Positions 5,903-28,458 of a DNA stretch of 36,269 nucleotides are shown in pieces. Both the position numbers and the translations under genes were made by a program. Numbering within the stretch: the stretch's first letter is position 1; each line of letters begins with the position of its first letter. The notes under the pieces are model-generated. The model searched no databases. It saw nothing but the letters and a program-made list of their open reading frames with translations, and had not been told where the DNA came from. The DNA is from Thermoleophilia bacterium (lineage in GTDB: Bacteria; Actinomycetota; Thermoleophilia; Gaiellales; Gaiellaceae), in NCBI GenBank assembly GCA_043739205.1, contig JAYUEQ010000051.1, positions 1 through 36,269 of the forward strand, in the 5' to 3' direction.

Positions 5903-7361
5903 CGTAGAAAAACGCCAGGACCGTTCGCCTGTTCCGACGGACTGGACGTACGCGCCCGCGCCCGAGAGCACGGACATCGTGAAGCTGCAGGACCGCTACG
6001 AGCTCTTCATCGGCGGCAAGTGGGTCGAGGCGAAGGAGCACTTCACCACGCTCTCGCCGCGCGACGAGTCACCGCTCGCCGAGGTTGCGCAGGCGAGCGA
6101 GGCTGACGTGCACAAGGCAGTCGCCGCTGCGCGCGAAGCCTTCCCTGCCTGGTCGAAGCTGCCCGGCTCGGAGCGCTCGAAGTACTTGTTCCGGATCGCA
6201 CGCATCCTCGCCGAGCGCGCCCGCGAGTTCGCGGTGCTCGAGAGCTTGAACGGAGGCAAACCGATCAAGGAATCGCGCGACGTCGACCTGCCGCTCGCAT
6301 CGGCGCACTTCTTCTACTACGCGGGCTGGGCCGACAAGCTCGAGTATGCGTTTCCGAACCGCAAGCCGAAGCCGATCGGGGTCGCCGGGCAGATCATCCC
6401 GTGGAACTTTCCGCTCCTGATGCTGTCGTGGAAGATCGCACCCGCGCTTGCGGCAGGCAACACCGTCGTGTTGAAACCCGCCGAGACGACCCCGCTCACG
6501 GCATTGCTCTTCGCCGATGTGCTCCGCCAGGCCGAGTTGCCGCCGGGCGTCGTCAACATCGTCACCGGCGACGGCCGAACCGGCGCGGCGCTCGTTGACA
6601 GTGACGTCGACAAGATCGCGTTCACCGGCTCGACCGAAGTCGGCAAGGCGATCCAGCGTCACGTCGCGGGCACCGGCAAGAAGCTGACGCTGGAGCTCGG
6701 CGGCAAGGCCGCGAACATCCTCTTCGACGACGCGGCGCTCGACCAGGCGGTCGAGGGGATCATCAACGGCATCTACTTCAACCAGGGTCACGTCTGCTGC
6801 GCCGGCTCGCGCCTGCTCGTGCAGGAGTCGATCTATGAACCCGCGATCGAGAAGCTGAAGAAGCGGATGGCGACGTTGCGTGTCGGCGACCCGCTCGACA
6901 AGAACACCGACGTGGGCGCGATCAACTCGCGCGAGCAACTCGACCGAATCACAGCGCTCGTCGAGGCCGGCAAGGAAGAGGGTGCGGAGATCTACCAGCC
7001 CCCGTGCACGCTGCCGGAGAAGGGCTACTGGTTCGCGCCGACAGTCTTCACGAACGTCGCGCAGAGCTACCGCATCGCGCAAGAGGAGATCTTCGGCCCA
7101 GTGCTGAGCGTGCTCACGTTCCGCACACCTGAGGAAGCCGTCGAGAAGGCGAACAACACGCCGTACGGCCTGTCCGCCGGCGTCTGGACGGAGAAGGGCT
7201 CGCGCATCCTCTGGATGGCGCAGCAGTTGCGCGCCGGCGTCGTGTGGGCGAACACCTTCAACCGCTTCGATCCGACGAGCCCGTTCGGCGGGTACAAGGA
7301 ATCCGGCTTCGGTCGCGAGGGTGGACTGCACGGCCTCGAGCCGTACATGGACTTCGAATGA
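5895..7361 (+). CDS. NAD(P)-dependent aldehyde dehydrogenase
   Basis: 488 aa with the catalytic motifs ELGGKA and FNQGHVCCAGSRLLV, plus GSTEVG. Start overlaps the end of deoC. Confidence 0.9.
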   Translation: MTDVEKRQDRSPVPTDWTYAPAPESTDIVKLQDRYELFIGGKWVEAKEHFTTLSPRDESPLAEVAQASEADVHKAVAAAREAFPAWSKLPGSERSKYLFRIARILAERAREFAVLESLNGGKPIKESRDVDLPLASAHFFYYAGWADKLEYAFPNRKPKPIGVAGQIIPWNFPLLMLSWKIAPALAAGNTVVLKPAETTPLTALLFADVLRQAELPPGVVNIVTGDGRTGAALVDSDVDKIAFTGSTEVGKAIQRHVAGTGKKLTLELGGKAANILFDDAALDQAVEGIINGIYFNQGHVCCAGSRLLVQESIYEPAIEKLKKRMATLRVGDPLDKNTDVGAINSREQLDRITALVEAGKEEGAEIYQPPCTLPEKGYWFAPTVFTNVAQSYRIAQEEIFGPVLSVLTFRTPEEAVEKANNTPYGLSAGVWTEKGSRILWMAQQLRAGVVWANTFNRFDPTSPFGGYKESGFGREGGLHGLEPYMDFE

Positions 7362-18349: not shown

Positions 18350-19023
18350 TGGCCGTTGAGCGCGTCGCGATCCTGTTCGACATCGACGGGACGCTGATCA
18401 CCACGGGCGGCGCGGGCGCCACGTCCTGGAGGCTGGCGTTCGACGAGCTGTACGGGATCCCGGCCGACATCGGCGAGTTCACGGACGCGGGGCTGACAGA
18501 TCCCGACGTCGGGCGCAAGACGTTCGAAGGCGTGCTGAAGCGAGAGCCGGAGCGCAAGGAGTTCGCGCGCCTGCTCGAACGGCGGCTGCATTACTTGCAC
18601 GCGGCGGTCGAGGAGTCGGAGGGTTACAAGGTCTTCCCGGGCGTCGAGGACCTGCTGCCGAAGCTGATCGAGGACGGGTATCTCGTCGGCCTCGTCACCG
18701 GGAACGTGGAAGCCGCGGCGCACATCAAGCTGCATCGCGCAAAGTTGAACCGTTTCTTCTCGTTCGGGGGCTATGGCTCCGACGCAAGCGACCGAGGCGC
18801 GCTGACGAAGATCGCCCTCCGCCGCGCCGCGCTCGTCTATGGCGAACGGGTGACCCCCGACCAGGCGCTCGTCGTCGGCGACACCCCGCACGACGTCGAG
18901 GGTGCCCACGCCGCCGGGATCGAGTGTGTCGGCGTCGGCGCCTATCACTTCACCGCGCAGCAACTGCGCGACGCCGGCGCCGACTACGCAATCGACTCGC
19001 TGGCCGACGGGCTCCCGCTCTAG
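18349..19023 (+). CDS. HAD-superfamily hydrolase (phosphoglycolate phosphatase-like)
   Basis: ATG at 18349 shares a base with the SDR stop (TGATG). Canonical motif I FDIDGTL, motif II VTGN and motif IV VGDTPHD. The ORF-track start at 17905 lies inside the SDR gene. Confidence 0.85.
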   Translation: MAVERVAILFDIDGTLITTGGAGATSWRLAFDELYGIPADIGEFTDAGLTDPDVGRKTFEGVLKREPERKEFARLLERRLHYLHAAVEESEGYKVFPGVEDLLPKLIEDGYLVGLVTGNVEAAAHIKLHRAKLNRFFSFGGYGSDASDRGALTKIALRRAALVYGERVTPDQALVVGDTPHDVEGAHAAGIECVGVGAYHFTAQQLRDAGADYAIDSLADGLPL

Positions 19024-19931
19024 GCATGAGTCGTGTCGCCCCGCCGGTCGGGAGGGACGTCGATCCGGGCAAGTGGCACGAAGATCCGTGCGAGGCGACG
19101 AAGCGCTGGGGACGTTCGGATTGGCATGAAGCTCACCGGTCGCAGCGGCTCGTCGGGATCGCGGCCGAAGGCGATGCTGGGTGATCCGTCGAGAATCCAC
19201 GTCGAGAAGATCCACAGGAGCTCGGTGAGGAAGCCGGCGATGATGATCCCGATCGCAGCGCCGCGCATGACGCCGAGCGCGCCCGCTGGAACGAGCGCAA
19301 CGGTCATGCCGCACAGCAAAGCCAGGATCCCGATGCGGTAGCTCTTGTTCATCCGCGCCACCCAGCGCCTGAAGTTGAGCTGGTGGGCGCGTTGATAGGC
19401 GATCTTGTCGTGCTTGCTCATGTCTTCGTACCAGGTGTCGAGATCGCCGGGGCTGATTGCGTATTCCTTGGCCCAGAACGCGCACTGGACCGAGGCGACG
19501 AAGAGCACCGAGGCGAGCGCGAGAAGAAAGAGGCCGACGCCGGCCCAGCGGAACTTCGTCGTGTCCGGAACGATCAGCCCGATCAGGGTCAGGCTGAAGC
19601 CGGCGAAGAGCGCGGCCGCGACAGAGCCGGCGCTGTCAGCTGCGTTCGCCTGCCCGAGCGGGAACGGGCTGTCCCAGTCCCAAGTTCGCTCCGGCTGCTC
19701 TTGCGGGATCAAGGCAGCGCCTCCGGCGACGACTCCCCGGGTGGACGCGGGCGCGGCTCCGGATTCGGGGGAGACTGCGGCGGAAGCGGCTCGGGCCGCG
19801 GCGGACGCGGACGCGGTTCCGGGTTCGGCGGGCTCTCGGGGAAGCCGTCGCTCTGCGGGGGACGCGGGCGAGGTTCCGGATCGGGAGGACTGGGCTCTGG
19901 GACGTTCGAGACCGGTGACGCTCCACTCCAC
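19020..19931 (-). CDS. Hypothetical integral membrane protein (about 4 TM) with a low-complexity N-terminus
   Basis: The hydrophobic C-terminal two thirds looks convincingly membrane-embedded (AALFAGFSLTLIGLIV, GVGLFLLALASVLFVASV, IGILALLCGMTVALV, AAIGIIIAGFLTELLWIF). The N-terminal about 90 codons and the true start are uncertain because of an overlapping Pro-rich frame. Confidence 0.55.
   Translation of the reverse strand: MEWSVTGLERPRAQSSRSGTSPASPAERRLPREPAEPGTASASAAARAASAAVSPESGAAPASTRGVVAGGAALIPQEQPERTWDWDSPFPLGQANAADSAGSVAAALFAGFSLTLIGLIVPDTTKFRWAGVGLFLLALASVLFVASVQCAFWAKEYAISPGDLDTWYEDMSKHDKIAYQRAHQLNFRRWVARMNKSYRIGILALLCGMTVALVPAGALGVMRGAAIGIIIAGFLTELLWIFSTWILDGSPSIAFGRDPDEPLRPVSFMPIRTSPALRRLARIFVPLARIDVPPDRRGDTTHA
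19743..19888. repeat. Imperfect tandem repeat, three units with a 57-60 bp period
   Basis: About 29-bp cores GGACGCGGGCGCGGCTCCGGATTCGGGGG (19743), GGACGCGGACGCGGTTCCGGGTTCGGCGG (19803) and GGACGCGGGCGAGGTTCCGGATCGGGAGG (19860). In the minus frame of ORF 19709..19984 they encode PxPEPRPRPP three times. Confidence 0.8.
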
Positions 19932-20077: not shown

Positions 20078-20335
20078 TCAGGCGTCGCGCGCAGCGACGA
20101 ACTCGGCCTCGACAGCGTCGAGGACGTCGTTCGGTGCTCCGTCGCGCGGGTCGAGCTCGCGCCACGCGAACTGCTCGAGATACGCGTCGCTGCCGACGAG
20201 GCCCTGCTCCATCGCCACCCGGTCGATCTCCTGCTGGAACCAGTCCGGGAGCTGGCGTGATTGCTGCGTTCCGTCGTCGAGTGTGACGCGGATCAGCGAC
20301 GGGATCTCCTGCCAGTAGAGAACGCGGACCTGCAT
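20078..20335 (-). CDS. Small conserved-looking protein of unknown function (85 aa), translationally coupled to the FDH Fe-S subunit
   Basis: ATG at 20335-20333 overlaps the stop of the upstream gene (ATGA). Sequence MQVRVLYWQEIPSLIRVTLDDG... The ORF-track start at 20524 lies inside the Fe-S subunit gene. Confidence 0.55.
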   Translation of the reverse strand: MQVRVLYWQEIPSLIRVTLDDGTQQSRQLPDWFQQEIDRVAMEQGLVGSDAYLEQFAWRELDPRDGAPNDVLDAVEAEFVAARDA

Positions 20336-21195
20336 CAGCGGCGGTTCTGCACGTACTGGTAGCCGAACCTGCCCTTGATGCAGAGGTTGCCCTCCGTCAC
20401 GTCGTGATCGTGCGGGGAGGTGACGTTCACGATCTCGTTGTCCTGCACATGGAGTTCGAGGTTGCAGCCGACACCGCAGTACGGGCACACCGTCGACACG
20501 ACCGTCTCGTTCTCCGCATCCCACGTGCCGGCCTGACGTTTCTCATACTCCGCCACCGACATCAGCGCGCCGGTCGGGCACACCGCAATGCAGTTGCCGC
20601 AGTACACGCACGCGGACTCGGGCAGCGCCACGTCGAGCTCCGTCGAGATGTGCGCGTCGAACCCGCGGCCGGCGACGGCGATCGCGAACGTGTTCTGATG
20701 ATCTTCACCGCACGCCGAGACGCACTTGTAACAGAGGATGCACTTCGAGTAATCGCGCACGTAGAGGTCGTTGTCGATCTTCACGTCCTGCGCGACCGTC
20801 GCCGCATCCGGGCCGAACCGATCGGGCTTGGCGTCGTACTCCTCGATGTAGGCAAGGGCTTCCGGTGCGGTCGAGAGGTCGACCGACGAGCCAAGGAGCT
20901 CGAGCACGAGGCGGCGTGAGGTGCGCACGCGTTCCGAGTCCGTGTGCACGACCATGCCCGGCTCCGCGATCCGCGAGCACGACGGGACAAGGGTGCGTGC
21001 ACCCTCGACCTCCACGACGCATACACGACAGACGTTCACCGGCGTGAGCGTGTCGCCGTAACAGAGTGTCGGCTGCTCGTTGCCGAGCATGCGGCACGCG
21101 TCGAGGATCGTCGAGCCTTCGAAGACCCGAACTGGCTGGCCGTCGACCGACAGCTCGATCATCTTCTTCGGCGCGGCGAGAACGACGCTGCTCAT
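20335..21195 (-). CDS. Formate dehydrogenase iron-sulfur subunit (NuoG-N-terminal-like)
   Basis: 286 aa. Carries a 2Fe-2S motif, two 4Fe-4S ferredoxin motifs and the 4Fe-4S domain normally at the N-terminus of the Mo subunit. 2Fe-2S region: CRMLGNEQPTLCY..VCRVCVVEV. Ferredoxin motifs: CILCYKCVSAC and CVYCGNCIAVCP. Mo-bisPGD-type cluster: CPYCGVGCNLEL...CIKGRFG. The ORF stops right after this cluster. Confidence 0.85.
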   Translation of the reverse strand: MSSVVLAAPKKMIELSVDGQPVRVFEGSTILDACRMLGNEQPTLCYGDTLTPVNVCRVCVVEVEGARTLVPSCSRIAEPGMVVHTDSERVRTSRRLVLELLGSSVDLSTAPEALAYIEEYDAKPDRFGPDAATVAQDVKIDNDLYVRDYSKCILCYKCVSACGEDHQNTFAIAVAGRGFDAHISTELDVALPESACVYCGNCIAVCPTGALMSVAEYEKRQAGTWDAENETVVSTVCPYCGVGCNLELHVQDNEIVNVTSPHDHDVTEGNLCIKGRFGYQYVQNRR

Positions 21196-22853
21196 GCGGC
21201 GAACACCTTCAAGTTCGCGATCGCCGACATGACCGCGCTCGCTGCCGTCTGGCCGAGACCGCAGATCGACGCGTCGCGCATCACTTGCGCGAGCTCCGCG
21301 AGTGTTTCAAGCTCGTTCTCGTGGGCGCGCCCTTCAGCGAGGCGGTGCAGCGCTTCCTCCTGCCGCACGGTGCCGACTCGACACGGGACGCACTGTCCAC
21401 ACGATTCGTCGCGGAAGAACTCTGCAATCCGGAGCAGCGCGGCCACCAGGTCGGCGCTCTCGTCGTAGACGATCACGACGCCGGAACCGAGCGTCACGCC
21501 CGCAGCGCGGGTGTCCTCGTAGGTGAGGCGCAGGTCGAGCAGGTCCGGGCCGACGAATGCGCCCGCCGCGCCGCCGAGGAGCACGGCCTTCGGCGGCTCG
21601 GCGCCCGCCAGGTCGAGCAGCTCGCGCAGCGTCGAACCAAAGGGAAGCTCGTAGAGACCCGGCTGCGCGACCGCGCCGGAAACGCAGAAGAGCCGTGTGC
21701 CCGTCGAGTCTTTCGTCCCCGTCTCGGCGTATGCCTCGCCGCCGTCGGCCACGATGTCGAGCACGTTGAAGAGCGTCTCGACGTTGTTTTCTGCGGTCGG
21801 CTTTCCGAACAGGCCGACCTCGACCGGGAACGGCGGCTTGTTGCGCGGCTCGCCGCGGAAGCCTTCGATCGACTGGAAGAGCGCCGTCTCCTCGCCGCAG
21901 ACGTAGGCGCCCGCGCCGATGCGCAGCTCGATGTCGAACCCGACGAGGAACTCGCGCGACCGTGCGAGATCGATCGCGTTCCGCAGCCGCCGGTGTGCGA
22001 GCGGGTACTCCGCGCGCACGTAGATGAAACCGTGGCTGCTGCCGGTCGCGAGCGCGGCGATCGCCATCGACTCGATCAGCGCGAACGGATCCTGCTCCAT
22101 CAGCACGCGGTCCTTGAACGTCCCAGGCTCGGATTCGTCGCCGTTGCAGACAAGGTAGTGCGGCTGGGCGGGCTGCTTTGCGACCGCGGCCCACTTGACG
22201 CCGGTCGGAAACGCCGCGCCGCCGCGGCCGAGCAGGTTCGACTCGGTGACCTCTTTCACGATCGCCTCCGGCCCGAGCTCGCGCGCGCGGCGCAGCGATT
22301 CGAAGCCGCCGGCCTGGATGTAGGCGTCGATCGATTCGGGATCGACACCCGCGGCGATGCGCCGCAGCAGGCGCAGGCCCGGCTGCCCCGCCTGCGGGAG
22401 CGGCGGGCCGGCGGCGGGGATCTGCTCCTCGACCGGATGCTCCCCGGCGATCGTGCGGTAGGCGGCAGGGGCGCGTTCGCAGAGGCCAAGGCACGGGGAC
22501 GGGAGGGCGCCCTCGGGCACGGTCGCGCCCTTCAACGCGCACGACAGGTCGGTGCAGACGTGCGTCACGTCCGCGGGCCGTTCGTCGAGTGCGATCAGTG
22601 CGTAGAAGCTCGCGACGCCGTAGGCCTCGGCGGGCGGCACTGCGAGCCGGCGCGAGGCGTAGCCGAGCGCGCCTTCGCTGACCCAGCCGACGCGCCGCTG
22701 GGCGGCGCGGAGTGCGGGCAGCAGCAGGTGACGCTTCGTGCGGTCGTCGCGCGTCGTGCGGCCGTTCGGGTTCGTTCCCGCGCCCAGCACCGCGTCGATC
22801 GCTGTCCGCTCGGCCTCGCTCGGCTCGGCATTCAGGAGCCGGAGGTCAGGCAA
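21192..22853 (-). CDS. NAD(H)-binding diaphorase subunit, fused NuoE-like plus NuoF-like (FdsG/FdsB type)
   Basis: 553 aa. N-terminal thioredoxin-like 2Fe-2S part (VCTDLSCALKG, CLGLCERAP), then NuoF motifs (GRGGAAFPTGVKW, NGDESEPGTFKDR, ESCGQCVPCRVG, ICGLG). Overlaps both neighbouring genes. Confidence 0.88.
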   Translation of the reverse strand: MPDLRLLNAEPSEAERTAIDAVLGAGTNPNGRTTRDDRTKRHLLLPALRAAQRRVGWVSEGALGYASRRLAVPPAEAYGVASFYALIALDERPADVTHVCTDLSCALKGATVPEGALPSPCLGLCERAPAAYRTIAGEHPVEEQIPAAGPPLPQAGQPGLRLLRRIAAGVDPESIDAYIQAGGFESLRRARELGPEAIVKEVTESNLLGRGGAAFPTGVKWAAVAKQPAQPHYLVCNGDESEPGTFKDRVLMEQDPFALIESMAIAALATGSSHGFIYVRAEYPLAHRRLRNAIDLARSREFLVGFDIELRIGAGAYVCGEETALFQSIEGFRGEPRNKPPFPVEVGLFGKPTAENNVETLFNVLDIVADGGEAYAETGTKDSTGTRLFCVSGAVAQPGLYELPFGSTLRELLDLAGAEPPKAVLLGGAAGAFVGPDLLDLRLTYEDTRAAGVTLGSGVVIVYDESADLVAALLRIAEFFRDESCGQCVPCRVGTVRQEEALHRLAEGRAHENELETLAELAQVMRDASICGLGQTAASAVMSAIANLKVFAA

Positions 22854-24735
22854 TAGCTTCCACCCGGATCGCCGTCGCCTTGAACTCGGCGGTGCCGCTC
22901 TTCGGGTCGGTCGCGTCGATCGTCAACACGTTCGTCTCGACGAGGTCGGGGAAGTGCAGGTTCATGAACGCGAGACCGGGGCGGAGGTTCTTGTCGAATG
23001 CGACCGGAGCCTCGACTGCACCGCGGCGCGAAGTGACGAGCGCCCGCCCGCCGTCGCGCAGTCCGTAGCGCGCGCCGTCTTCCGGCGAGACGAGCAGCGC
23101 CTCGCCTCCGGCGTGGAGCGGTGAGGAGAACCCGCCGGTCTGCACGCCGGTGTTGAACGACTCGAGGCGACGGCCGGTGGTGAGGCGTAGCGGGAAGTTG
23201 GCGTCGAGCACATCGACGGGCGGCGAGTGCTTGACGGGATGGAATGCCGCCGGCCGTTCGACGACGTCGTCCCAGAGCCGGCCGTGCAGGAACTGGTCGC
23301 CGGGATGCGTCTCGTCCCAGCACGGCCACTGAATCCCGCCGAGCTCCTCGAGCCGGGTGTAGGACATGCCCGCGTGCATGGGGGAGAGCGTACGCAGCTC
23401 GTTCCAGATGTCCTCCGGGCGCGGGCTGCCGAGGTCGACGCCGAGGCGGCTGCCGAGCTCGTAGACGATCTCGATGTCGTCGCGGGCCTCGCCGGGAAGG
23501 TCGAGCGCCTTGCGCACGCGCTGCACCCGCCGCTCGCTCGAGGTGACGGTGCCCTCGGCCTCGGCCCACGACGCCGAAGCAGGGAAGACGACGTCTGCCA
23601 GCTCCGCCGTCTTCGTGCGGAAGATGTCCTGCACGACGAGGCTGTCGAGGCTCTCGAGCAGTCGGCGCGCGCGGGTCTGGTCGGCTTCCGACTGCGCGGG
23701 GTTCTCGCCGATCACGTACAGCGCGCTCAGCTCACCCCGCTCGATCGCCTCGAACATCTCCGTGAGGTGCAGTCCGCTCTTCGGTGGGACTGTCACGCCC
23801 CAGGCTGCGTCGAACTTTGCGCGTGCAAGGTCGTCCTCCACCTCCTGGAAGCCCGGCAGATGCTTCGGGATCGCGCCCATGTCGCCGCCGCCCTGCACGT
23901 TGTTCTGGCCGCGCAGCGGCTGGAGCCCGGCGCCGTGGCGGCCGACGCCGCCGACGAGCAGTGAGAGGTTGATCAGCGCGAAGACGTTGTCGACGGCGTT
24001 GTGGTGCTCGGTGATCCCGAGCGTCCAGCACATCTGCGGGTACTTCGAATTGCCCCAGGCGTGTGCGAGTTCCCGGATCGCCTCGGCCGGCACGCCGGTC
24101 ACCCGCTCGGCTTCCTCGAGCGTCCACGGCTCGACCGACTCGCGATACGCGTCGTAGCCGGTCGTCGCGCGCGCGACGAACTCCTCGTTCACGAGCCCAG
24201 CCGTGATCACTTCGCGTGCAACGGCATTCGCGAGCGGGATATCGGTCCCGACGTCGAGCCCGAGCCACAGGTCGGCCCACTGCGCCGACGCGGTGCGGCG
24301 CGGGTCGACGACGAAGAGCTTCGCCCCGCGGTGCACGGCCTTCAGGACGTGGTGGAAGAAGATCGGGTGCGCGTCGCGCGCGTTCGAGCCCCAGAGGATG
24401 ATCAGGTCCGCAGACTCGCGCAGCTCTTCGTAGGAGCTGGTCCCACCGCCGGCACCAAACACCGTCGCCAGACCGACGACGCTAGGGGCGTGTCAGGTGC
24501 GGTTACAGCTGTCGATGTTGTTGGTGCGGAGAGCGACCCGGCCGAACTTCTGGGCAGCGAAGTTCAACTCGTTCGTGGCCTTGGAGCAACTGAAGATCCC
24601 AGCCTGTTTTCCCTGCTGTGCAGTGCGGCGGAAGCCGGCGGCGGCTCTGTCGAGTGCCTCGTCCCAGGTGGCGGTCCTCAGCTCTCCGGCGTCACGAACG
24701 AGCGGCTGGGTCAGCCGCGTGTACCTCGGAGGCAT
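22846..24735 (-). CDS. Formate dehydrogenase catalytic (Mo/W-bisPGD) subunit, selenocysteine-containing, lacking its own N-terminal Fe-S domain
   Basis: ORFs 24493..24735 and 22846..24462 are in the same frame, separated only by TGA (24493-24495) and 10 sense codons. The joined sequence reads NNIDSCNRT-U-HAPSVVGLATVFGAGGG, matching the FdhF Sec-site context. Downstream blocks are typical of FdhF (LRGQNNVQGGGDMG, VQDIF, TAEFKATAIRVE). ATG at 24735 is preceded by AGGA. Confidence 0.85.
24463..24481 (-). promoter_or_regulatory. Bacterial SECIS-like hairpin
   Basis: On the mRNA strand, 11 nt after the UGA, lies CGUCGUC-GGUCU-GGCGACG. This forms a 7-bp stem (one G-U pair) with a GGUCU apical loop. 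The GGUCUG occupies the same codon offset (+7/+8) as in the E. coli fdhF SECIS as I recall it. Confidence 0.7.
24493..24495 (-). other. In-frame UGA read as selenocysteine (codon 81 of the FDH catalytic subunit)
   Basis: The TGA sits exactly where E. coli FdhF has Sec (context C-x-R-x-U-H-x-PSV). The reading frame stays open and homologous on both sides. Confidence 0.8.
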
Positions 24736-24793
24736 GCGCCGATCCTAGACCGAAACGGTGGCGCGCTCGTTCCGCATTGTGGAACGCCCAAGA

Positions 24794-24853
24794 AGTGTCT
24801 GACACCCGTTCGGACTGCGGATTCAGGCCGGACTGCGAAAGGTGTCAGACACC
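24794..24853. repeat. Palindromic repeat locus 3: two copies 47 bp apart
   Basis: AGTGTCTGACACC at 24794-24806 and GGTGTCAGACACC at 24841-24853. The spacer contains a direct repeat of GGACTGCG. The second copy lies inside the last 31 nt of the glpD reading frame. Confidence 0.9.
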
Positions 24854-26244
24854 GTTCCGCCCTCGAGCCACACCGTTGTGCGCCGGCGGTAGACGTCTTC
24901 GTCGGTGCGCGCCCACTCGTGCTCGCGCGCGTAGAGCTCTTGCGCCCGAAGGTCGGGCCGGCCGGGAATGATCGGTTCGAGCAGTGCAGGGTCGTCGACG
25001 GCCGGCGCGAGCACCTCAGGCGCAAGAGAGCCGTAGAGGTGCAAGAGGTGCGTGCGTGTCGCGGGGTCGAGCTCGACGGGCCAGTCGATCTTGTTCAGCC
25101 CGGCTGCGCCCGGCAGCGGACGTGGCTTGCGGTCGAGGTTGCGCACGCCCAGATGCTCGAGCGCGTCGAGTGCGATGCGGCGATAGGTCGTCAGCTTGCC
25201 ACCGGCGACGCTCAACATTCCGTGCGCGCCGTGCGTGTAGACGGTCTCGCGGCGCGCGTTCGCGGTCGCGCCCGGACCGCCGGGCAGCACACGCAGCCCG
25301 TAGAACGATGCACGCACCTCGCCGATGTCGCGCACGGCGACGGCGGCCTCGTCGAGGATCGTCCGCGCGTCGTCGTCGGTCACGCGCGCGTCCTCGGGCT
25401 CGCCCTCGTGCAACGTGTCGGTCGTGCCGAGCAGGAGCTTGCCCTCCCACGGGATCGCAAAGCTCACGCGCACCTTGTCGTGCGGGATCGTCACCGCGGC
25501 GTTCCAACCCTCGCCACCGTCGGCGATCAGATGCACGCCCTTGCTGAGCCGGATCGACGCGGCGGCGCCGGGATCCTCGAGCCGGCGCACGCGGTCGAGC
25601 CAGGGGCCGGTCGCGTTGACGATCGCTCCCGCTTGCACCCGTACGGTCTCGCCGTCGACGAGAACGTCGGCACCGTCGCCGTGGATCGCCGTCACCTCCG
25701 CGTAGTTGAGGACGGTGGCGCCGCGGTCGGCGGCGGCGCGCACGTTCGCGAGCGTCAGCCGGCCGTCGTTCGTCCACGCGTCGGCATAGAGCGCCGAGGA
25801 GTGCAGTCCCTCAGTGCGGAGTTGCGGCACGAGCCTCAGGGCGCGCGTCTCGCTCACCCGCCCGTTCAGCTTCGCCCGCGCGAGTGCGGAGTACAGGAGC
25901 ACCCCGGTGCGCACGAACCAGGGGCGATGCGGCCCGTTGTCGTAGAGCGGGAACACGAACGGCAGCCGGTGGACGAGGTGCGGCGCGACGACCGACATCA
26001 GCGCGCGCCGCTCCTGGTGCGCCTCGCGCACGAGGCGGATGTCACCCATCTGCAAATAGCGCAGGCCGCCGTGGATGAGCTTCGACGATGCAGACGAGGT
26101 CGCCGAGGCAAAATCACCACGCTCGACCAGCGCGACCTTCATTCCGTGAGCGCTCGCCGCTTCCGCGATTCCGGCGCCGATGATCCCGCCGCCGATCACG
26201 AGCAGGTCGAACCGGGTGCCGGCGAGAGCTTCTACGCGATCCAT
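24823..26244 (-). CDS. glpD: FAD-dependent glycerol-3-phosphate dehydrogenase
   Basis: ATG at 26244 (MDRVEALAGTRFDLLVIGGGIIGAGIA). Motifs SSKLIHGGLRYL and GGKLTTYR. The ORF-track start at 27042 runs through the upstream PHP gene in another frame and is rejected. Confidence 0.88.
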   Translation of the reverse strand: MDRVEALAGTRFDLLVIGGGIIGAGIAEAASAHGMKVALVERGDFASATSSASSKLIHGGLRYLQMGDIRLVREAHQERRALMSVVAPHLVHRLPFVFPLYDNGPHRPWFVRTGVLLYSALARAKLNGRVSETRALRLVPQLRTEGLHSSALYADAWTNDGRLTLANVRAAADRGATVLNYAEVTAIHGDGADVLVDGETVRVQAGAIVNATGPWLDRVRRLEDPGAAASIRLSKGVHLIADGGEGWNAAVTIPHDKVRVSFAIPWEGKLLLGTTDTLHEGEPEDARVTDDDARTILDEAAVAVRDIGEVRASFYGLRVLPGGPGATANARRETVYTHGAHGMLSVAGGKLTTYRRIALDALEHLGVRNLDRKPRPLPGAAGLNKIDWPVELDPATRTHLLHLYGSLAPEVLAPAVDDPALLEPIIPGRPDLRAQELYAREHEWARTDEDVYRRRTTVWLEGGTVSDTFRSPA

Positions 26245-27173
26245 AGCGGGTTGCTCCAGGCCCTGTTTCCGTCGCGGTCGAGCACCTCGACGCGTCCGTA
26301 GGGCGCCTCGTAGGGGCGAAGGAGCCGCGCCGCGGTGATCAGGCCGTCGTCGTTGCGCTCGATGATCTCCGAATGGTTCGGGTAGCCGAGCCGGCCGGCG
26401 TTCGCCCGCGCGCCGCGCCAGCGCCCCGAATAGAGCGTCACCGCTTCGGCCGGGCTGCACCGAACGACGACATCGCCGTCGCTCACCTCGATGTCGCGGA
26501 TCTCCGGGCCGGTCGAGCCGTAGAACATCCCGCTGCGCAGCGCGTCGAGCACCGCCTCCTGCGTCTTCTCCTTGACCCGCACCCACGTCGAGGCAAAGCC
26601 GCTGTCGTAGCCGGGATGGTGCGAGTCGTCGGTCGCGAGCGCGAAGAACGGCCGCCCGTGCTCGAGCACCTCGTCCCAGTGGATCGAGGAATCGCCGCGG
26701 CCGAGCTCGAGCTCGCAGCCCGAGTTCCAGACCTCGATCCCATAGAGGCCGGGGCAGTCCCACCACTGCTCCGTCCGGAGGCCGCTCCAGTAGGTGTGAG
26801 CGAGGTACGGGACGCCGCCGTTCTCGGCGATCCAGGCGACGACCTCCTCGAGGGGCGCGAAGTTGCCCTCCGGCACGACGGGATCGACTGCAAGGCCCAA
26901 AGCGAGCACGTGAGCGTCGTGCTCCTGGGTCGGGGCATAGGCGTTCAGCTCGGTCGAGGGGATCACGAGCAGCTTCTTCGTCGAGGGCTCGACCGTCCGC
27001 ACCCAGTGATCCGTGATCGCGAGGACGTCGTAGCCCGCCCACTCGTAGTGCCGCACGAGCAGCTCCGGAGCCAGCTCGCCGTCGGAATTCGTAGTGTGCG
27101 CATGGAGGGCGCAGCGAAGCCAGCTGCCGTCTGTCTGGAACGGGTTCACGGAGAGAGCGTAACGACCCAACAT
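26232..27173 (-). CDS. PHP-domain metallophosphoesterase (CehA/McbA-like)
   Basis: ATG at 27173 (MLGRYALSV). Motifs HAHTTNSDG, AITDHW and DDSHHPG. Its 3' end overlaps the glpD start by 13 nt. Confidence 0.7.
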   Translation of the reverse strand: MLGRYALSVNPFQTDGSWLRCALHAHTTNSDGELAPELLVRHYEWAGYDVLAITDHWVRTVEPSTKKLLVIPSTELNAYAPTQEHDAHVLALGLAVDPVVPEGNFAPLEEVVAWIAENGGVPYLAHTYWSGLRTEQWWDCPGLYGIEVWNSGCELELGRGDSSIHWDEVLEHGRPFFALATDDSHHPGYDSGFASTWVRVKEKTQEAVLDALRSGMFYGSTGPEIRDIEVSDGDVVVRCSPAEAVTLYSGRWRGARANAGRLGYPNHSEIIERNDDGLITAARLLRPYEAPYGRVEVLDRDGNRAWSNPLWIA

Positions 27174-27270
27174 CGTTACCACCCGTTGCCAGAAAGTTAG
27201 GGCGCGGATAGCTTGAAATGAGAGAGCGTTACGTGATCCACTAGAGGACACCACGGACCGGGAGGAATGC

Positions 27271-28458
27271 ATGGAGGACTACGAGGCCCAAGAGGTCGAA
27301 TTCTGGGCAAAGCTCGAAGAAGAGGGCATCAGCCGCTCGTCGATGCTGCGCCGCAGCGCGGCGGCAGCGTTCGGCTTGACCGTGTTCAGCAGCGCGGGAA
27401 CGGCGCTTGGCGCGACGCGTTCGCGGTTTGCGGCACCGCCGGTGAAAGAGACGGCTGCCGGCATGGCCGAGCTGATCAAGAACGCGAAGAAGGAAGGCCA
27501 CCTCAACACGATCGCGCTGCCGCCTGACTGGGCGAACTACGGCGAGATGATGTCGACCTTCTCGAAGAAGTACGGCATCCCGATCACGAACGACAATCCG
27601 GATGGCAGCTCGGCGCAGGAGAACGAGGCGATTCGCTCGCTCAAGGGCGACTCACGGGCCCCTGATGTCGTCGACGTCAGCCTTGCCTTCGCGATCCCGG
27701 GCGCCAACGAGGGCCTGTATGCGAAGTACTTCAACACCAACTACAAGACGATCCCCCGTGCCCTCAAGGACACGCGCGGCTACTGGATGGGCGACTACTG
27801 GGGTGCGGTGTCGATCGGCTACAACAAGTCGCTCGTCAGCAATCCGCCCAAGACGTGGAAGGACCTGACGAAGCCCGAATACAAGGGCAAGGTCGCGATG
27901 AACGGGTCGCCCCTCTCGTCGGGCTCCGCAATCGCGGGTGTCTTCGCAGCGACGCTCGGCGCCGGCGGGTCGTTGTCGGATGTCGGCCCGGGAATCGACT
28001 TCTTCGCCGCACTGAAGAAGTCGGGCAACTTCATCCCGGTGCAGACCACGCCGCAGACCGTTGCGTCGGGCCAGACACCCATTTCGATCGACTGGGACTA
28101 CAACAACCTTGCGTACGTCAAGGAGTTCCCGGCCGCGAACTGGGGCGTCTCGATCCCGGCCGACGGTGTCTACGCGGGCTACTACGCCCAGGCCATCAAT
28201 GCAACCGCTCCGCACCCGTGGGCGGCTCGTCTCTGGGAGGAGTTCTGCTACTCCGACCAGGGTCAGCTGATCTGGCTGAAGGGCTTCTCGCATCCGGCTC
28301 GGTTCAATGATCTGGCGCAACGCAAGGCGCTTCCGAAGAACCTGCTGGCAGCTCTGCCCTCACCGGCGCTCTACGCGAAGGTGAAGTTCGCGAGCCTGTC
28401 GCAGTTGACCAACGCGAAGGCGAAGATCGCCGCCGAGTGGCCGTCGAAGGTCGGGTAG
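27271..28458 (+). CDS. ABC transporter periplasmic substrate-binding protein (PotD/Fe3+-type family), Tat-type signal
   Basis: GGGAGGA lies 6 nt upstream of the ATG at 27271. Twin-arginine region SSMLRRSAAAAFGLTVF is preceded by an unusual acidic 24-residue extension. An alternative start is ATG 27343. Confidence 0.8.
   Translation: MEDYEAQEVEFWAKLEEEGISRSSMLRRSAAAAFGLTVFSSAGTALGATRSRFAAPPVKETAAGMAELIKNAKKEGHLNTIALPPDWANYGEMMSTFSKKYGIPITNDNPDGSSAQENEAIRSLKGDSRAPDVVDVSLAFAIPGANEGLYAKYFNTNYKTIPRALKDTRGYWMGDYWGAVSIGYNKSLVSNPPKTWKDLTKPEYKGKVAMNGSPLSSGSAIAGVFAATLGAGGSLSDVGPGIDFFAALKKSGNFIPVQTTPQTVASGQTPISIDWDYNNLAYVKEFPAANWGVSIPADGVYAGYYAQAINATAPHPWAARLWEEFCYSDQGQLIWLKGFSHPARFNDLAQRKALPKNLLAALPSPALYAKVKFASLSQLTNAKAKIAAEWPSKVG

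Follow-up and report, generated by a model that had tools for sequence, protein, structure and literature searches.

A split alpha subunit in a predicted NAD-linked, selenocysteine-type formate dehydrogenase operon of Gaiellaceae and other soil bacteria

We analyzed a 36,269-nucleotide (nt) stretch of DNA from a Thermoleophilia bacterium of the family Gaiellaceae (GenBank assembly GCA_043739205.1, contig JAYUEQ010000051.1; here called the window), in which the alpha subunit of a formate dehydrogenase (FDH) had been predicted to be divided between two genes in permuted order. The operon most probably encodes a three-subunit, cytoplasmic, NAD-linked, molybdenum- or tungsten-dependent (Mo/W) FDH of the FdsABG/MeFDH1 kind, with selenocysteine (Sec) at its active site and a proximal [4Fe-4S] cluster supplied by a separate subunit. 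This reading draws on the domain content of the proteins, the conservation of their cluster ligands, the contiguous mapping of the two fragments on fused enzymes, the linkage of the genes across phyla and the tight overlaps between them. The domain, ligand, contiguity and linkage data likewise support the claim of the original prediction that the cluster nearest the pterin is encoded on a different polypeptide from the active site. The split layout itself is real, and at least five bacterial phyla share it.

The operon runs on the minus strand from position 24735 to position 20078 and consists of four open reading frames (ORFs) arranged head to tail, namely, those for the catalytic subunit, a NuoE-NuoF fusion (the diaphorase), an Fe-S subunit and a PF13769 protein (Table 1). 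The positions and order first proposed for these ORFs were borne out by ORF calls, translation and inspection of the junctions. The catalytic and diaphorase genes overlap by 8 nt (TTGCCTGA), with the diaphorase starting at a TTG codon, and the diaphorase and Fe-S genes overlap by 4 nt (ATGA); the Fe-S gene and the gene for the 85-amino-acid (aa) PF13769 protein share a single base (TGATG), so that the last of the overlaps originally given as 8, 4 and 4 nt is in fact 1 nt. The catalytic gene begins, as had been claimed, at an ATG preceded by an AGGA ribosome-binding site, and since an in-frame TAG lies 4 codons 5' of this ATG, the ORF cannot extend further upstream. A promoter and terminator scan yielded nothing useful.

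Table 1. Features of the FDH operon and their positions in the window
Feature	Position	Strand	Description and basis
Catalytic subunit gene	22846..24735	-	629 codons plus stop; translation, Pfam, TIGR01591
Diaphorase (NuoE-NuoF fusion) gene	21192..22853	-	553 aa; Pfam, PDB matches
Fe-S subunit gene	20335..21195	-	286 aa; Pfam, PDB matches, Cys alignment
PF13769 ("Virulence_fact") protein gene	20078..20335	-	85 aa; Pfam
In-frame TGA, predicted Sec codon	24493..24495	-	Codon 81 of the catalytic gene
SECIS-like hairpin	24463..24481	-	Folding and comparative data
AGGA ribosome-binding site	24743..24746	-	7 nt 5' of the catalytic ATG; read from the sequence

The Fe-S subunit carries the part of the alpha subunit that is missing from the catalytic protein. 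Pfam placed a Fer2_4 domain at residues 11 to 87 of the 286-aa product, a two-cluster ferredoxin domain at residues 146 to 211 and a Molybdop_Fe4S4 domain at residues 231 to 284. The predicted ligands comprise Cys45/56/59/73 for a [2Fe-2S] cluster, Cys152/155/158/162 and Cys196/199/202/206 for two ferredoxin-type [4Fe-4S] clusters and, at the C terminus, Cys237/240/244/272 for the proximal cluster, together with Lys274 in a C-I-K-G motif; the protein ends in ...CIKGRFGYQYVQNRR-stop. All 16 ligand cysteines were invariant among 34 Fe-S homologues from several phyla, and Lys274 was kept in at least 90% of them. An AlphaFold model of the subunit superposed on the N-terminal third of the NAD-linked FDH alpha subunits 9ktl_A, 6tg9_A and 7vw6_A with a template modeling (TM) score of ~0.70. 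In PDB sequence matches, the protein aligned to residues 25 to 304 of Rhodobacter capsulatus FdsA (RcFdsA), which, with the Pfam assignments, agrees with the earlier claim of a separate 286-aa gene that joins the Fe-S part to the 4Fe-4S motif of the Mo domain.

One domain of the FdsA architecture was not recovered. Of the Pfam domains that had been proposed for mapping, Fer2_4, the ferredoxin domain, Molybdop_Fe4S4, Molybdopterin and Molydop_binding were all found on the two products, whereas the His-ligated cluster domain NADH-G_4Fe-4S_3 (PF10588) had no Pfam match in the window Fe-S protein. Its His/Cys motif was also missing from residues 88 to 145 in 34 of 34 aligned split-type Fe-S subunits, while several fused relatives keep this domain. 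The loss of this His/Cys3 cluster, which corresponds to the dimer-interface cluster A4, suggests that the enzyme does not form an FdsA-type dimer. At the site of the His-ligated cluster in fused enzymes, seven Fe-S subunits (P0377, P0386, P0388, P0397, P0434, P0464 and P0493) have an insertion of ~24 residues with the pattern PPxPPAD..RxPGxHExPxG (columns 161 to 184 of alignment A1). Four Gemmatimonadaceae loci (L059, L073, L076 and L078) encode a Gly-rich, low-complexity tail of ~40 residues after the Fe4S4 domain (at ~7918 to 8035 in L059).

The catalytic subunit, by its domain matches, is predicted to comprise only domains II to IV of a Mo/W-bis(pyranopterin guanine dinucleotide) (Mo/W-bisPGD) enzyme. 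Its 629-codon product matched Molybdopterin (PF00384) at residues 7 to 429 (E = 3.7e-65) and Molydop_binding (PF01568) at residues 516 to 621 (E = 3.7e-23), and neither Pfam nor the NCBIfam Fdh-alpha model TIGR01591 detected an Fe4S4 domain on it, in keeping with the original prediction. Positions 52 to 672 of TIGR01591 aligned to the catalytic protein with 602.9 bits, below the cut-off of 666.25, and positions 1 to 50 of the same profile fell on the 286-aa Fe-S protein; the shortfall in score fits the absence of the first 51 profile positions. The PDB sequence match gave the same picture, since the catalytic protein aligned to RcFdsA residues 307 to 933. The break after residue 304 is therefore clean, and the catalytic part indeed starts at the next homologous segment.

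The sequence marks of FDHs are also present, namely, Sec81-His82 (CNRT-U-HAPS) and Arg275 (PLRGQNNVQG). Secondary NCBIfam matches to NasC (383 bits) and NasA (354 bits) could point to a non-formate substrate, for instance if the enzyme were akin to assimilatory nitrate reductases. However, the score of the Fdh-alpha profile is much higher (603 bits), both the RGQ arginine and the Sec/Cys-His pair are retained, and all of the best PDB relatives of the catalytic protein are formate dehydrogenases. A substrate other than formate is thus very unlikely.

A scan that covered one genome per species gave 80 loci from Gaiellales, 13 cultured Amycolatopsis genomes, Gemmatimonadaceae and one Streptosporangiaceae metagenome-assembled genome (MAG). 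In tblastn searches with the four window proteins, all three core genes were present in 73 of these loci, the other 7 being cut by contig ends. The order catalytic-diaphorase-FeS on one strand held in 73 of 73 complete loci and was violated in none of the 80, nor was there an exception to it among the 83 related loci examined altogether. In every surveyed locus, the Fe-S ORF stops 0 to ~40 residues past an RFGYQxVQNR motif, and the catalytic ORF starts with M..Y.RLT and has no Cys motif upstream. The closest Fe-S homologues (282 to 296 aa) come from Gaiellaceae and Thermoleophilia metagenome genomes. Further split members occur in Lentzea, Kutzneria, Umezawaea, Streptacidiphilus, Thermopolyspora, Saccharopolyspora, Halopolyspora and Streptosporangium, and the same gene order was confirmed on contigs of Acidobacteriota, Chloroflexota and Verrucomicrobiota. 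The neighborhood survey that had been suggested as a check therefore found the same fission and order throughout.

These observations bear directly on whether the alpha subunit merely looks split or rearranged because of an assembly artefact, a frameshift or a decaying pseudogene. The catalytic frame does contain a stop codon, and the DNA comes from an uncultured-type lineage whose nearest relatives are Gaiellaceae MAGs. However, the same break points and order recur in 80 independent loci, some of them on complete genomes from cultured Amycolatopsis (in one of which, L071, Pfam confirmed the layout), and the operon ORFs, all three core ORFs included, have coding-type values of GC content at third codon positions (0.87 to 0.90). 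The stop itself is a TGA at the Sec position, is accompanied by a conserved selenocysteine insertion sequence (SECIS) hairpin and is replaced by TGC in orthologues. Since independent assemblies and complete genomes share the order and break points, the layout is neither an artefact nor a pseudogene, an explanation to which we attach next to no probability. The original argument against a misassembly thus gains from the 73 complete loci, the complete Amycolatopsis genomes and the three further phyla.

We also considered whether the Fe4S4 domain on the 286-aa subunit might be an N7-like relic of NuoG, in which case the catalytic subunit would either work without a proximal cluster or pass its electrons to another partner, and the diaphorase and Fe-S subunit would form a HoxFU-like module of their own. 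Some Mo-bisPGD enzymes, such as dimethyl sulfoxide and trimethylamine N-oxide reductases, do lack a proximal cluster, the Fe-S protein resembles HoxU over residues 12 to 214 (NCBIfam model NF005745, 123 bits), and subunit assembly is here a prediction from sequence. Nevertheless, the four cysteines are invariant and the pterin-facing lysine nearly so, in an FDH-type C-x2-C-x3-C...C-x-K-G arrangement; the three genes are always linked and fixed in order; the catalytic protein starts exactly at the point that, in fused enzymes, marks the end of the Fe4S4 domain, with neither a gap nor an overlap; and an FDH catalytic subunit that had nowhere to pass its electrons would be functionless. We therefore regard a relic as quite improbable. 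The FDH-type Molybdop_Fe4S4 domain, with its four invariant cysteines and C-x-K-G lysine, equally sets the 286-aa protein apart from a generic NuoG- or hydrogenase-type subunit.

Because codon 81 of the catalytic frame is TGA (24495..24493), exactly at the catalytic Sec/Cys position, a plain ORF caller returns products of 80 aa and 538 aa. The 629-aa product of the original prediction thus stands only if Sec is inserted at this codon, and the selenoprotein status of the enzyme was absent from that description. At the same codon, 52 related loci carry TGA and the 13 Amycolatopsis loci carry TGC or TGT; TGA is also found at the equivalent position in the Acidobacteriota, Chloroflexota and Verrucomicrobiota loci. 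Folding identified a hairpin, CGUCGUC-GGUCU-GGCGACG, with a 7-bp stem that starts 11 nt after the UGA and a GGUCU loop, which resembles that of the Escherichia coli fdhF SECIS. Among 15 diverse sequences, 98% of cells were paired, and the basal pair underwent compensatory changes from C-G to G-C in Chloroflexota and from C-G to U-A in Verrucomicrobiota. The Cys-type Amycolatopsis genes have no such hairpin.

Selection on the nucleotide sequence was evident as well. Codons +4 to +9 showed zero synonymous variation among 52 distinct Sec-type sequences, in which glycine was encoded by GGT in 52 of 52 cases, whereas the third-position entropy of the flanking codons was 1.0 to 1.8 bits. The z-score of single-sequence folding (z = 0.13) was uninformative in this GC-rich sequence, and it was the comparison among sequences that proved decisive. 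An alternative 10-bp register, taken from the minimum-free-energy fold, was rejected, given that 90% of its cells were paired, with no excess over shuffled sequences. The alternation of TGA and TGC, the conserved SECIS hairpin and the suppression of synonymous change support reading the in-frame TGA as selenocysteine and hence the FDH as a predicted selenoprotein.

The diaphorase would connect the split enzyme to NAD+. The 553-aa chain matched 2Fe-2S_thioredx, Complex1_51K, SLBB and NADH_4Fe-4S in Pfam and is therefore a NuoE-NuoF fusion, with NuoE-like [2Fe-2S] ligands (Cys100/105/121/125), NuoF-like [4Fe-4S] ligands (Cys485/488/491/531) and a domain for flavin mononucleotide (FMN) and NAD. 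The only full-length PDB match was the beta subunit of Methylorubrum extorquens FDH1 (MeFDH1; 7e5z_B), with residues 40 to 545 aligned to residues 48 to 556. The [2Fe-2S] motif at residues 100 to 125 has the spacing C-x4-C-x15-C-x3-C, and its Pfam match spans positions 9 to 81 of the 145-position profile. In NuoE the middle spacer is ~35 residues long, and the x15 of the diaphorase is shorter.

In the enzyme that we propose, formate would be oxidized at the Sec-ligated metal of the 629-aa subunit, and the electrons would travel via the pterin to the proximal [4Fe-4S] cluster; this cluster, with Lys274, would be contributed by the C-terminal domain of the 286-aa subunit. From there they would move through the two ferredoxin-type [4Fe-4S] clusters and the [2Fe-2S] cluster of the Fe-S subunit to the [4Fe-4S] cluster and FMN of the diaphorase, where NAD+ would be reduced. 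The two alpha fragments are expected to assemble into the canonical fold. This electron path, the choice of NAD+ as the acceptor and a physiological role in formate oxidation are extrapolated from the ligand sets and domain matches described above.

A different main role, such as CO2 reduction, the use of NADP+ or another acceptor, or electron bifurcation of the HylABC-FdhF2 kind, appears unlikely, albeit less so than the other alternatives. NAD-linked metal-dependent FDHs are reversible (PMC7171172). Domain matches do not reveal nucleotide specificity, and the best-scoring PDB relatives of the diaphorase include the bifurcating HydB and NfnB subunits. However, the diaphorase has no counterpart of the additional ferredoxin-type clusters at the C terminus of Bfu-type NuoF homologues; its only cluster motifs are the four cysteines of one [4Fe-4S] cluster and the NuoE-type [2Fe-2S] set. 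Its length and layout instead match those of the nonbifurcating MeFDH1 beta subunit. The host lineages are mostly aerobic soil heterotrophs, and no Wood-Ljungdahl genes were present among the window ORFs scanned, which made up ~14 of ~31 candidates (four operon ORFs and ten flanking ORFs).

Several points weigh against the enzyme that we propose. The association of the subunits, the substrate, the metal and the acceptor are all predictions made from sequence. The catalytic part scores 469 bits against FdhF of the hydrogen-dependent CO2 reductase (HDCR) but 380 bits against FdsA, and this better agreement with an FdhF-type protein implies that a plain fission of FdsA may be too simple a history; moreover, none of the three core proteins reaches any NCBIfam cut-off. 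The single-chain model of the Fe-S subunit is mediocre (predicted local distance difference test [pLDDT] score of 67.5), and its last 25 residues score below 50. No Rfam family matches the hairpin. Neither a maturation gene, FdhD, FdsC and FdsD included, nor a sel gene was found among the scanned ORFs, and a tRNA scan of the window found no tRNA gene and hence no tRNA-Sec gene.

Across phyla, split members share 63 to 72% identity in the Fe-S subunit and 65 to 69% in the catalytic subunit, whereas identity to the nearest fused relatives is at most 40% and 44%, respectively, a difference that fits a single origin followed by spread. A search of representatives returned mostly fragments and was used for fused relatives and a few divergent split members. 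Fused metagenome relatives take up both halves contiguously, as in P0247 (residues 3 to 271 and 273 to 892) and P0211 (residues 9 to 278 and 281 to 900), and a plasmid collection held only fused fdhF-type genes with identities of at most 38%.

Relative to diaphorase-[FeS.cat], the gene order is cyclically rotated. We speculate that an ancestral diaphorase-alpha operon was duplicated in tandem and then lost its outer parts, which would have produced the fission and the permutation in one step; this model is drawn from the topology of the operon. A 1,405-aa metagenome protein, P0125, was examined as a possible triple fusion and rejected as such, since it consists of two complete NuoG-like/FDH alpha units in tandem. 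It may represent a genuine duplication-fusion or else a read-through in gene calling and, if genuine, would be the type of intermediate that the duplication-and-trimming model needs.

Taken together, these data show that the split FDH, a variant of a well-known enzyme class, is real, conserved and widespread and that it extends beyond this genome. Its noteworthy features are the proximal cluster on a separate chain and the selenocysteine in the NAD-linked class of FDHs, which are unusual rather than revolutionary. We propose more tentatively, as an idea about as easily doubted as believed, that these operons form the first Mo/W-bisPGD family in which the proximal [4Fe-4S] cluster and the pterin-linking lysine come from another polypeptide and domain I is built from two chains, and that they constitute one clade, to which the cyclic permutation of an operon may have given rise, that has spread through at least five soil phyla and is mostly of the Sec type, in contrast to the Cys of all characterized NAD-linked, oxygen-tolerant FDHs. 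If this is true, the enzyme could be a major but overlooked way in which formate is oxidized aerobically in soil, and it could serve as a natural template for the engineering of modular FDHs.

Metal-dependent FDHs are closely studied for CO2 reduction, and the wiring of the active site to the electron chain is central to that work. The conserved break implies that separate proteins can build the interface between the proximal cluster and the pterin domain, and it suggests that the catalytic subunit could be made, supplied with its cofactor or connected to other modules on its own. Annotation pipelines give the parts generic names, such as "2Fe-2S iron-sulfur cluster-binding protein," "formate dehydrogenase alpha subunit" and "NAD-dependent formate dehydrogenase iron-sulfur protein," and gene callers may break one alpha subunit into as many as three pieces (286, 80 and 538 aa). 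Since these pieces fall below curated cut-offs, the split FDH may be undercounted when formate metabolism is surveyed in Gaiellales, Acidobacteriota, Gemmatimonadota, Chloroflexota and Verrucomicrobiota. The enzyme would add a selenoprotein, and so a requirement for selenium, to abundant soil lineages that are presumed to be mostly aerobic.

The fourth gene of the window operon is not part of this conserved core. The only Pfam match of its 85-aa product is PF13769 (E = 1.7e-12), the protein has no PDB sequence match, and a full-text literature search, whose coverage leaves out most subscription journals, found no mention of the family. The gene adjoins the core in many Gaiellales loci and lies several kilobases away in others (L009, L015 and L021 to L023); it was not detected in the Amycolatopsis, Gemmatimonadaceae, Acidobacteriota, Chloroflexota or Verrucomicrobiota loci. 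The PF13769 protein is therefore an accessory of a single lineage, and it might serve as an accessory or assembly factor in a role like that of FdsD. Clustering of flanking ORFs across loci revealed no universal fourth gene, the result being swamped by shadow ORFs on the opposite strand.

The same-strand upstream neighbor of the operon encodes a GlpD-like flavoprotein and ends at 24823; GlpD-like ORFs recur in the flanks of ~22 related Gaiellales loci. The products of the ten other flanking ORFs that were scanned comprise an ABC transporter, a short-chain dehydrogenase/reductase, a haloacid dehalogenase-type hydrolase and unrelated proteins, with no gene for molybdenum cofactor or selenium metabolism among them. 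A 346-aa ORF at 26232 to 27272 on the minus strand has a good coding signal and no Pfam match, and homologues of it recur in the flanks of ~25 related Gaiellales loci. On the other side, a 303-aa ORF (19020 to 19931, minus strand) that likewise has no Pfam match encodes a Pro/Ala/Ser-rich N terminus and C-terminal segments that, as judged by eye, appear hydrophobic and membrane-like. In the Chloroflexota locus L082, a GYD-domain gene (1799 to 2119) separates the catalytic gene from the diaphorase gene, and an FdhD-NarQ gene (5988 to 6845) lies ~0.8 kb downstream on the opposite strand; no other maturation gene was seen in the vicinity of any of these operons.

Within its coverage, the full-text search turned up no account of a Mo/W-bisPGD enzyme whose proximal cluster is carried by another chain and none of an operon of this kind; an earlier description may exist in the subscription journals, most of which lay outside the search. 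Among characterized enzymes, the closest counterpart is the tungsten-containing, NAD-linked MeFDH1 (Fdh1AB; PDB 7vw6, 7e5z and 8j83), an alpha-beta heterodimer with the same cofactor set as that predicted here, namely, bis-molybdopterin guanine dinucleotide, a proximal [4Fe-4S] cluster, two ferredoxin-type [4Fe-4S] clusters plus a single [2Fe-2S] cluster. Its beta subunit, like the diaphorase of the window, is a NuoE-NuoF fusion with FMN, a [4Fe-4S] cluster and an off-path [2Fe-2S] cluster, and MeFDH1, too, is without the His-ligated cluster (PMC10869683). The Fe-S and catalytic proteins map to residues 69 to 341 and 372 to 978 of MeFDH1 alpha. However, MeFDH1 alpha is one 989-aa chain with an active-site cysteine, whereas the window operon encodes two chains in rotated genes with a predicted Sec.

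The FdsABG(D) enzymes of R. capsulatus and Cupriavidus necator (PDB 6tg9) similarly combine a NuoG-like N terminus with a Mo-bisPGD unit and a NuoF/NuoE-type diaphorase, and FdsA is the best sequence and fold match of the Fe-S subunit. In contrast to the split enzyme, FdsA is a single chain with a Cys active site and the extra His/Cys3 cluster A4, which in the R. capsulatus enzyme sits at the dimer interface, away from the main route of the electrons (PMC7171172). Moreover, FdsG and FdsB are proteins of their own, FdsD is present, and the gene order is fdsGBACD. The original assignment to FdsA-type enzymes thus holds as regards an NAD-linked FDH, but the predicted cofactor set and the fused NuoE-NuoF chain fit MeFDH1 better than FdsABG. 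The characterized NAD-linked FDHs cited here, from R. capsulatus, C. necator and M. extorquens, all have an active-site Cys where Sec is predicted in the window.

In the bifurcating HylABC-FdhF2 of Gottschalkia (Clostridium) acidurici and its relatives, the NuoG-like Fe-S module HylA is likewise apart from a Sec-containing catalytic subunit, although the cut there falls before the Fe4S4 domain and so leaves the proximal cluster on FdhA rather than on the Fe-S subunit (PMC5736913). HylA also keeps the His-ligated cluster, HylB has extra clusters and HylC is separate, all unlike the arrangement described here. The HoxFU module of NAD-reducing [NiFe] hydrogenases pairs a NuoE-NuoF fusion, HoxF, with a small protein that resembles the N terminus of NuoG, HoxU, as in the window operon; HoxU, however, has no Molybdop_Fe4S4 domain, and its catalytic partner is a hydrogenase. 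In formylmethanofuran dehydrogenase, the Mo/W-bisPGD catalytic unit is also carried on two chains, FwdB and FwdD, but it is cut at the opposite end, such that FwdD is domain IV and the Fe4S4 cluster stays with FwdB.

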